The notes beneath the pieces are model-generated. The model searched no databases. It saw nothing but the letters and a program-made list of their open reading frames with translations, and was not told the DNA's origin. From positions 50,904,001-50,968,000 of the forward strand of contig OZ076409.1 in the NCBI GenBank assembly GCA_964187785.1: a DNA stretch of 64,000 nucleotides, in the 5' to 3' direction. The position numbers and the translations under genes were made by a program. Source of the stretch: Amphiscolops sp. MND2022. Taxonomy: Eukaryota. Shown piece after piece: positions 55,571 through 56,379 of this stretch. The stretch's first letter is position 1. The number at the start of each line of letters is the position of its first letter.

Positions 55571-56379
55571 TTATTCTGTACTGCTTTTATACCTTTTACG
55601 GCTTTTGCCCACAGCAGTCCTGTCTGAAGCCAATTTCCTGTGACGATTACACCATTCATCTGATATGTTCCGCTCCACAGTGCAAATACAACTACAATTG
55701 GCTTGCTCTACTTCGGTCCACACTGAATGCAGAAAACCATACGGAAAATAAATAGTGCAACCCGGCTCAACGATAGTCCAAAAAATCTGCGCAGCTCTGG
55801 TTGGCTTAAGGCTGTCTAATAGGCGAATAGTCCCAGAGAGTGCTGTTCTTCTTACTCTTGCTGCTCTATCGAGTTCTTGACCCAAACTTGACAAAGCACA
55901 GAACATCCACAGTTTTCTCCCAGAGATATGTGTGACGAATGAATGCCCCTCTTCTTCCAGATCATGGTGAAGAGCTCTGAAGCTTGACTTCTCCACAAAC
56001 ATCAAGTCTCCTAGACGTTCGGATATTAGCTCTGATGCATCCAAACGAGGATCGTCAGTGAAGGGGGACTGAATTTTTACACCCGATCTTACACGGGCAG
56101 GGCTCTCGTCACAGTTACTAAAATTCAGACCTCAATGGTTCTCACTGGAACACAGCTGAAATTCCGCTCTGGATTGGATAGAATTGCAACAAGATCCTTG
56201 AAAGACGGCAGGTGGGTGACAATTGAACTTCTCCTATTTTCCCTGGGATTGACGAAAGAGTACTCAGGAACTCGTCTACTGCGTCCAGAAGCTGAACGAT
56301 TGGCATCACGATCAACAAATTCAGTCACATTGAATCTTAAAATATTGAATAAACTCAAGGTGTCCTGGATGTTGAAAGC
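55571..56379 (-). pseudogene. JmjC-like Fe(II)/2-oxoglutarate dioxygenase ORF, antisense within the BEL element; one frameshift near 56130
   Basis: LMFVEKSSFRALHHD...SFVTHISGRKLWMFC...IVEPGCTIYFPYGFLHSVWT gives HxD (55961-55969), GxKxW, and PGxxxxxPxGxxHxV (His at 55727-55729). Confidence 0.8.

Follow-up and report, generated by a model that had tools for sequence, protein, structure and literature searches.

Enzyme cargo known from transposons includes DNA methyltransferases and an RNA demethylase. A lineage of orchid Gypsy long terminal repeat (LTR) retrotransposons has fixed an extra open reading frame (ORF) for an AlkB m6A demethylase, a 2-oxoglutarate (2OG)/Fe(II) oxygenase with a proposed role in counter-defence (PMC9289625), and cytosine methyltransferases, likewise epigenetic enzymes, are described in PMC5890265 as captured repeatedly by distinct retrotransposon classes. 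In Grande, RIRE2 and Retand, the interval from pol to the 3′ LTR is reported to hold antisense ORFs that have an antisense transcript of their own (PMC7264820), with the antisense promoter of human T-cell leukaemia virus as a parallel, and a few BEL/Pao elements hold a different extra gene, env, in the same pol-to-LTR interval (PMC3118150). Here, we describe a gene for a predicted JmjC-type oxygenase that occupies this position and strand in a BEL/Pao element of Amphiscolops sp. MND2022. The element lies in the stretch OZ076409.1 50,904,001-50,968,000, the 64,000-nt window to whose numbering all feature positions refer (Table 1). Our preferred reading, to which we give a probability of about 0.55, is that the gene encodes a transposon-borne, anti-silencing histone demethylase.

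An antisense JmjC gene in BEL/Pao elements

The order of Pfam domains in the window element (DUF1759, aspartic protease, RVT_1, Peptidase_A17, rve, DUF5641) is that of BEL/Pao retrotransposons, its TG..CA LTRs share 200 of 206 aligned bases with each other, and a 5-bp target-site duplication (TSD) flanks it on both sides. The initial annotation of a TSD-bounded BEL element is thereby borne out, and so is its placement of an antisense frame with a JmjC signature between the integrase and the 3′ LTR: the 186-aa minus-strand frame contains HHD, GRKLW and PGCTIYFPYGFLHSV. Taken alone, this frame scores weakly (Pfam JmjC_2 E=0.017, below the cut-off; NO66 E ~0.003), and it is the family profile and the predicted fold, checks of the kind suggested at the outset, that make the JmjC assignment clear. 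The proposal that a single frameshift joins it to an upstream frame, giving ~260 aa, did not hold. The family protein has 292 aa, and the window copy lacks ~121 nt that are present in 10/10 sisters compared. Its start codon is altered, whereas 11 of the 13 other copies that can be read have it. For these reasons, the window copy is dead and cannot make the JmjC protein; its gag-pol is also broken, into six pieces.

A search of the 1.07-Gb genome with the window frame (290 candidates, 150 scored) gave at least 150 matches. The best 30 loci are all antisense and directly behind a BEL integrase, in agreement with the earlier view of the frame as cargo of the element with no separate insertion. 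The 17 closest loci represent 15 distinct places, and inspection of these copies for presence and intactness, as the annotation had advised, found the 292-aa gene open in six of the 15. The same antisense layout recurs at 19 of 20 more distant loci (one without a BEL match within 10 kb) and at 18 of 20 further loci picked by JmjC (two without a BEL match); genomic context was checked one by one outside L051-L080, a set of 30 loci of which four entered the splice survey described below. In ~20 BEL lineages, related compact genes of 260-300 aa occupy the same antisense slot, after pol and before the 3′ LTR, and many of the carrier elements are young, as their LTR pairs are 98-100% identical.

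The gene is not a general feature of BEL elements. Among 20 control elements picked through the tail of the integrase (6215 first-look candidates), it was found in three, one of them a previously known carrier, and was missing in 17. An integrase tree covering 36 of 38 rows (two loci were left out for a short integrase match) places the window element in a 14-row clade with 98/95 support, all 14 rows of which are carriers, though selected for JmjC; the other carriers fall on separate branches, next to non-carriers.

Two side observations concern BEL elements. In some BEL lineages the JmjC gene apparently lies inside the LTR and is thus present twice per element, as seen at L095 and in hit pairs ~7 kb apart. 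Two BEL elements without JmjC each have a different antisense frame at the 3′ end (L093, 6423-7469, minus strand, 349 aa; L090, 6851-7330, minus strand, 160 aa). The L093 frame shares the slot and the upstream acceptor-like layout of the JmjC gene, and has Cys and His motifs that we take to resemble those of OTU-type proteases; it has no Pfam or Atlas match.

Conservation and selection

The His, Asp, Lys, Trp and His residues of the JmjC motifs are invariant in all 14 lineages near that of the window and throughout the whole set of 28 proteins, in which mean column identity is 22%. The ratio of nonsynonymous to synonymous substitution rates (dN/dS), which the initial annotation had expected to fall below 1, is 0.10-0.43 in each of the 13 informative pairs with dS ≥0.09, out of 34 compared. 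A further 15 pairs are synonymously saturated at a protein identity of 36-72%, and six very close pairs are noisy (0.20-1.28). Seven pairs were tested and gave Fisher p values from 2e-3 to 1e-16. Compared with a sister, the window copy has a dN/dS of 0.26 for JmjC and 1.46 for the integrase; between lineages, the JmjC protein changes about twice as fast as the integrase. Constraint on the sense strand was considered as a source of the low ratios and is ruled out by stops in all three opposite frames. We regard the JmjC frame as almost certainly a real, selected cargo gene. The opposite notion, that a host gene fragment was passively captured and drifts without benefit to the element, would account for the broken state of the window copy and of many others, and for the lack of the gene in most BEL elements. 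It conflicts with dN/dS well under 1 between lineages and with the protein identity retained at saturated dS, with the fixed position and strand and the conserved splice signals, and with the finding that none of the matches examined is a close single-copy gene that could be the source; it is very improbable and has largely been refuted already.

The invariant residues also bear on whether the protein is an enzyme. It might act without catalysis, by binding chromatin or a host factor in the manner of fission-yeast Epe1, or the antisense RNA might be the regulator and the frame secondary. Antisense ORF transcripts may regulate through double-stranded RNA (PMC7264820), a non-enzymatic function of Epe1 is described in PMC7192584, and the rapid evolution relative to the integrase would suit such a role. 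Invariance of all metal and co-substrate ligands across proteins ~20% identical is, on the other hand, hard to explain without catalysis, and we consider a non-catalytic or RNA-level function quite improbable.

Fold and family placement

Two predicted models (pLDDT 85-86) show the JmjC fold, a double-stranded beta-helix closest to those of JmjC proteins. The JOR/JmjC superfamily is marked by HxD in strand 2 and a His in strand 7 (PMC2938197), both of which are kept in 28/28 proteins, as is a Lys at the position of the strand-4 basic residue. Models and motifs together support a product of the JmjC-type Fe(II)/2OG oxygenase class. Profile matches favour KDM7/PHF8, ahead of JMJD6 by ~11 bits and with FIH and JMJD5 not on the list, and support KDM7/PHF8 as the closest solved relatives. 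In the JHDM1/KDM2/KDM7/PHF2 group, Thr replaces the Asn after the strand-7 His (PMC2938197 Table 1); the corresponding residue here (HxxxT) is Thr in 14/14 near lineages and Thr or Ser in 26/28 of the whole set. The marks of JMJD6/JMJD4 are HxxxN in strand 7 and an Asn in mid strand 3 (PMC2938197), and among the 28 proteins none has Asn after the His and only one has the strand-3 Asn.

The likeness to KDM7A/PHF8/PHF2 and KDM2A thus comprises the JmjC fold over 220+ residues, the HxD..K..H series, the Thr after the distal His and the best profile matches. The transposon proteins differ from these enzymes in being only 8-16% identical to them, half the size, devoid of PHD, CxxC and F-box domains, and present as transposon genes at 150 or more places. 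The position before the first His, a Thr in PHF8, is Thr or Ser in 17/28 but Arg in the window's clade, and the PHF8-like strand-3 Tyr is found in 0/28; in PHF8, this Thr and Tyr presumably have a co-substrate role.

Predicted signals of antisense expression

In lineages where the open frame is just 157-238 aa, a predicted upstream exon lies beyond an AT-rich GT..AG intron of 67-114 nt on the JmjC strand. Seven lineages share the first intron site, as does an eighth whose inspected copy has a non-canonical donor; two lineages have a second site. Coding introns are missing from the lineage of the window and from the two closest to it. The GT-AG introns of many lineages are readable on the antisense strand only. 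Of 25 representatives of BEL and Gypsy lineages, 23 have a TTYHAG acceptor no more than 25 nt ahead of an in-frame ATG (up to five ATGs inspected per lineage, the lineages being related to each other), against a background of 329/6620 ATGs (5.0%) or 158/2108 AT-rich ATGs (7.5%).

Together, these signals suggest that the antisense strand gives rise to a spliced transcript. Most simply, it would start in the 3′ LTR and have an intron in its 5′ untranslated region (UTR), the alternative being trans-splicing onto the acceptor. Introns on the sense strand of a retroelement are lost during retrotransposition. Antisense orientation would hide the introns of the JmjC gene from the spliceosome on the genomic RNA, so that they survive, and the loss of sense-strand introns may be what keeps the orientation of the gene fixed.

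Gypsy carriers and cassette exchange

A profile search against 1.84 billion representatives returned 75 matches, many of them lineages of the window's own genome; ten were looked up and had no names attached. One distant match led to multi-copy relatives in the same genome, antisense behind a Gypsy pol that was confirmed by Pfam (RVT_1, RT_RNaseH, rve) in 4/4 loci scanned. The 12 loci fetched at this step comprise two BEL elements, six Gypsy or Gypsy-like elements and four loci without pol in range, and a JmjC gene in sense orientation to pol was seen at none of the loci examined. The initial description of an antisense JmjC gene as BEL/Pao cargo stands, and the phenomenon extends beyond one BEL lineage to many BEL lineages and to Gypsy elements.

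One group of profile matches has no close counterpart in the window's genome. P0029 and its relatives (8 cluster members, long contigs) branch within the same JmjC lineage; their best identity in that genome is 29-38%, and they probably derive from another organism. Another member, ~60% identical to one lineage and sharing its intron, lies on a metagenome contig of 1.4 kb.

The JmjC tree, which leaves out six proteins missed by the motif regular expression, agrees with the integrase tree for the main groups and differs in detail. The BEL elements L039 and L048 are 96-98% identical in LTRs and gag-pol, while their JmjC proteins are 50% identical and their genes give no blastn match; in the Gypsy elements L133, L137 and L142, flanks 89-95% identical surround JmjC proteins 64-72% identical. 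Divergent JmjC genes within near-identical elements mark the gene as a swappable cassette, and these comparisons indicate that it is exchanged between elements as a module. At least one exchange between BEL and Gypsy, or a shared source, is likewise indicated. Repeated transfers between the two were not retained as a conclusion, as the trees mix BEL and Gypsy but a grouping of the five Gypsy rows is not rejected (approximately unbiased test, p-AU 0.217).

Several further observations were made at these loci. Gypsy elements bearing JmjC have a Macro-like domain at the pol end (L137, 1-552, plus strand; Pfam E=0.0015, below the cut-off) or long frames that resemble env by eye, with no Pfam match (L149, 3791-6037, minus strand; L153). 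At L150 (1-4843, plus strand), a SET-domain gene and then a frame resembling a tyrosine recombinase by eye lie beside the JmjC repeat; a combined SET and JmjC element was considered and rejected, because the repeat that L150 has in common with a second copy does not include the SET frame. L158 (G000:C1:25642300-25648300) contains, at 712-1332 on the plus strand, an exon of a separate, more canonical KDM2/7-type JmjC gene (KDM2A E=2e-18; Pfam JmjC over the cut-off), apparently multi-exon and with no BEL match at the locus. About 39 genome matches share its exon length and near-equal score, which suggests a repeat family, of which one member was examined; the opposite strand at L158 has a BRCT domain and a 468-aa frame resembling a DNA transposase by eye, with no database match. 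The genome search that gave these matches lists a 206-aa multi-copy JmjC family.

A possible anti-silencing role

We propose that JmjC is a second gene of the element, expressed separately. It would be transcribed in antisense from the 3′ LTR and spliced, by a 5′-UTR intron or trans-splicing before the ATG and, in many lineages, at internal introns. The small protein would enter the nucleus and, in the manner of KDM7/PHF8, oxidatively remove repressive lysine methylation of the H3K9me2/H3K27me2 type, thereby loosening the silencing of elements. It would probably act in trans, as it has no targeting domain. Circumstantial support comes from the DNA-methylation side, where element copies have no excess of CpG transitions and a search of the whole genome for the C5 DNA-methylase family gave 11 candidates with only five matches, together hinting at little DNA methylation of repeats, and from the apparent multiplication of a second KDM2/7-type JmjC in another repeat.

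Several findings weigh against this proposal. Fusion with chromatin domains is a hallmark of histone demethylases (PMC2938197), and no PHD, CxxC, F-box or LRR fusion was matched by Pfam in any member scanned, for which reason we do not file the family within JHDM1/KDM2/KDM7/PHF2. In fold scores, JMJD5 and FIH tie with the KDM7 group (Z within about 1). A basic tail motif is present in only 13 of 26 proteins, and many BEL elements thrive without the gene.

Some of these points would suit an active JmjC oxygenase in the style of FIH, JMJD5, JMJD6 or NO66 that hydroxylates or demethylates a non-histone protein. The target could be a host defence, splicing or ribosomal protein (for example, methyl-arginines in proteins of small-RNA pathways), or it could be Gag or integrase of the element itself. 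Hydroxylases of these types typically consist of JmjC alone, with no reader domain; the fold-score tie and the missing chromatin-domain fusions fit as well, and the GxKxW strand, as a single sequence, matched NO66 first. The profile ranking and the missing HxxxN motif described above speak against it, and we hold a non-histone protein substrate to be possible but unlikely. An RNA substrate, such as the primer tRNA, a frameshift-affecting tRNA base (as for TYW5) or the element RNA, would parallel the AlkB of orchid Gypsy elements and seems improbable to us.

If the histone demethylase reading is extended to all carriers, the mobile elements of this genome may share a pool of stand-alone histone-demethylase cassettes, spliced in antisense. 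A swappable slot ahead of the 3′ LTR would hold them, they would pass among BEL lineages and from BEL to Gypsy or back, and a further repeat class would have made a second capture of the KDM2/7 type. Such cassettes would constitute an animal eraser system, encoded by transposons and in an arms race with heterochromatin, its hundreds of copies able to shift germline histone methylation genome-wide. This wider idea is tentative, and we rate it somewhat short of even odds.

Features of the window

Two features of the window lie outside the BEL element. A short interspersed repeat occurs at 45909-46106, 48940-49138, 56968-57175 and 60008-60210, three times on one strand and once on the other, and AT-rich frames at 17068-28534 resemble, by eye, an element of the Polinton/adintovirus type with protease, capsid-like, packaging ATPase, integrase and DNA polymerase frames.

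Table 1. Parts of the BEL/Pao element (49771-56583) and its JmjC gene, in window coordinates.
Feature	Position	Strand	Evidence
Left target-site duplication, 5 bp	49766..49770		Identical to bases 56584-56588
5′ LTR, TG..CA, 209 nt	49771..49979	+	LTR pair comparison
gag (DUF1759)	49998..51209	+	Pfam E=1.7e-30
Protease, reverse transcriptase, RNase H (Peptidase_A17); three broken frames	51210..53549	+	ORFs, Pfam
Integrase (zinc finger, rve core, DUF5641 tail); broken frames	53550..55160	+	ORFs, Pfam
AATAAA past JmjC stop; possible antisense polyadenylation signal (weak, without control)	55492..55497	-	Within 400 nt in 14/20 lineages
JmjC catalytic core, residues 107-292 of family protein	55571..56131	-	ORF, alignment
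Core residues: His-x-Asp; Lys; distal His; Thr of HxxxT	55969-55961; 55915-55913; 55729-55727; 55717-55715	-	Alignment
Site of ~121 nt missing from window copy, present in sisters	56130..56133		10/10 sisters
JmjC gene, N-terminal part; start codon altered in window copy	56134..56328	-	ORFs, sister alignment
Predicted AG splice-acceptor-like motif, 7 nt before start position	56336..56342	-	Motif in 23/25 lineages
3′ LTR, 214 nt; putative seat of antisense promoter	56370..56583	+	LTR alignment; promoter role presumed
Right target-site duplication	56584..56588		Matches left duplication

Comparison with known systems

No report of JmjC cargo in retrotransposons was found in the literature searched, a scope that does not include subscription papers, Repbase entries and supplements. 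The terms 'JmjC' and 'antisense' have 0 occurrences in the BEL/Pao survey PMC3118150, and 'Jmj' has 0 in the giant-transposon review PMC6431247 and in PMC5890265. Within that literature, this is a previously unreported kind of retrotransposon cargo. Should the proteins erase repressive histone marks, elements of an animal-type genome would be countering host defence directly with an enzyme, and a small protein of one domain would offer a means to test the arms race over heterochromatin that has long been assumed. Irrespective of its substrate, the family represents a new JmjC lineage that evolves fast and offers dozens of natural variants, and a clear case of antisense orientation keeping intron-bearing genes within retroelements.

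The described systems differ from this arrangement. The AlkB of orchid Gypsy elements is not a JmjC protein, acts on RNA, belongs to a single plant lineage and is close to host genes (PMC9289625). The captured cytosine methyltransferases are writers of DNA methylation in dinoflagellates and charophytes and are not JmjC enzymes (PMC5890265). The antisense ORFs of Grande, RIRE2 and Retand encode proteins without known function or clear homologue (PMC7264820), whereas the cargo reported here, in BEL/Pao, is a recognisable enzyme with predicted introns in many lineages.
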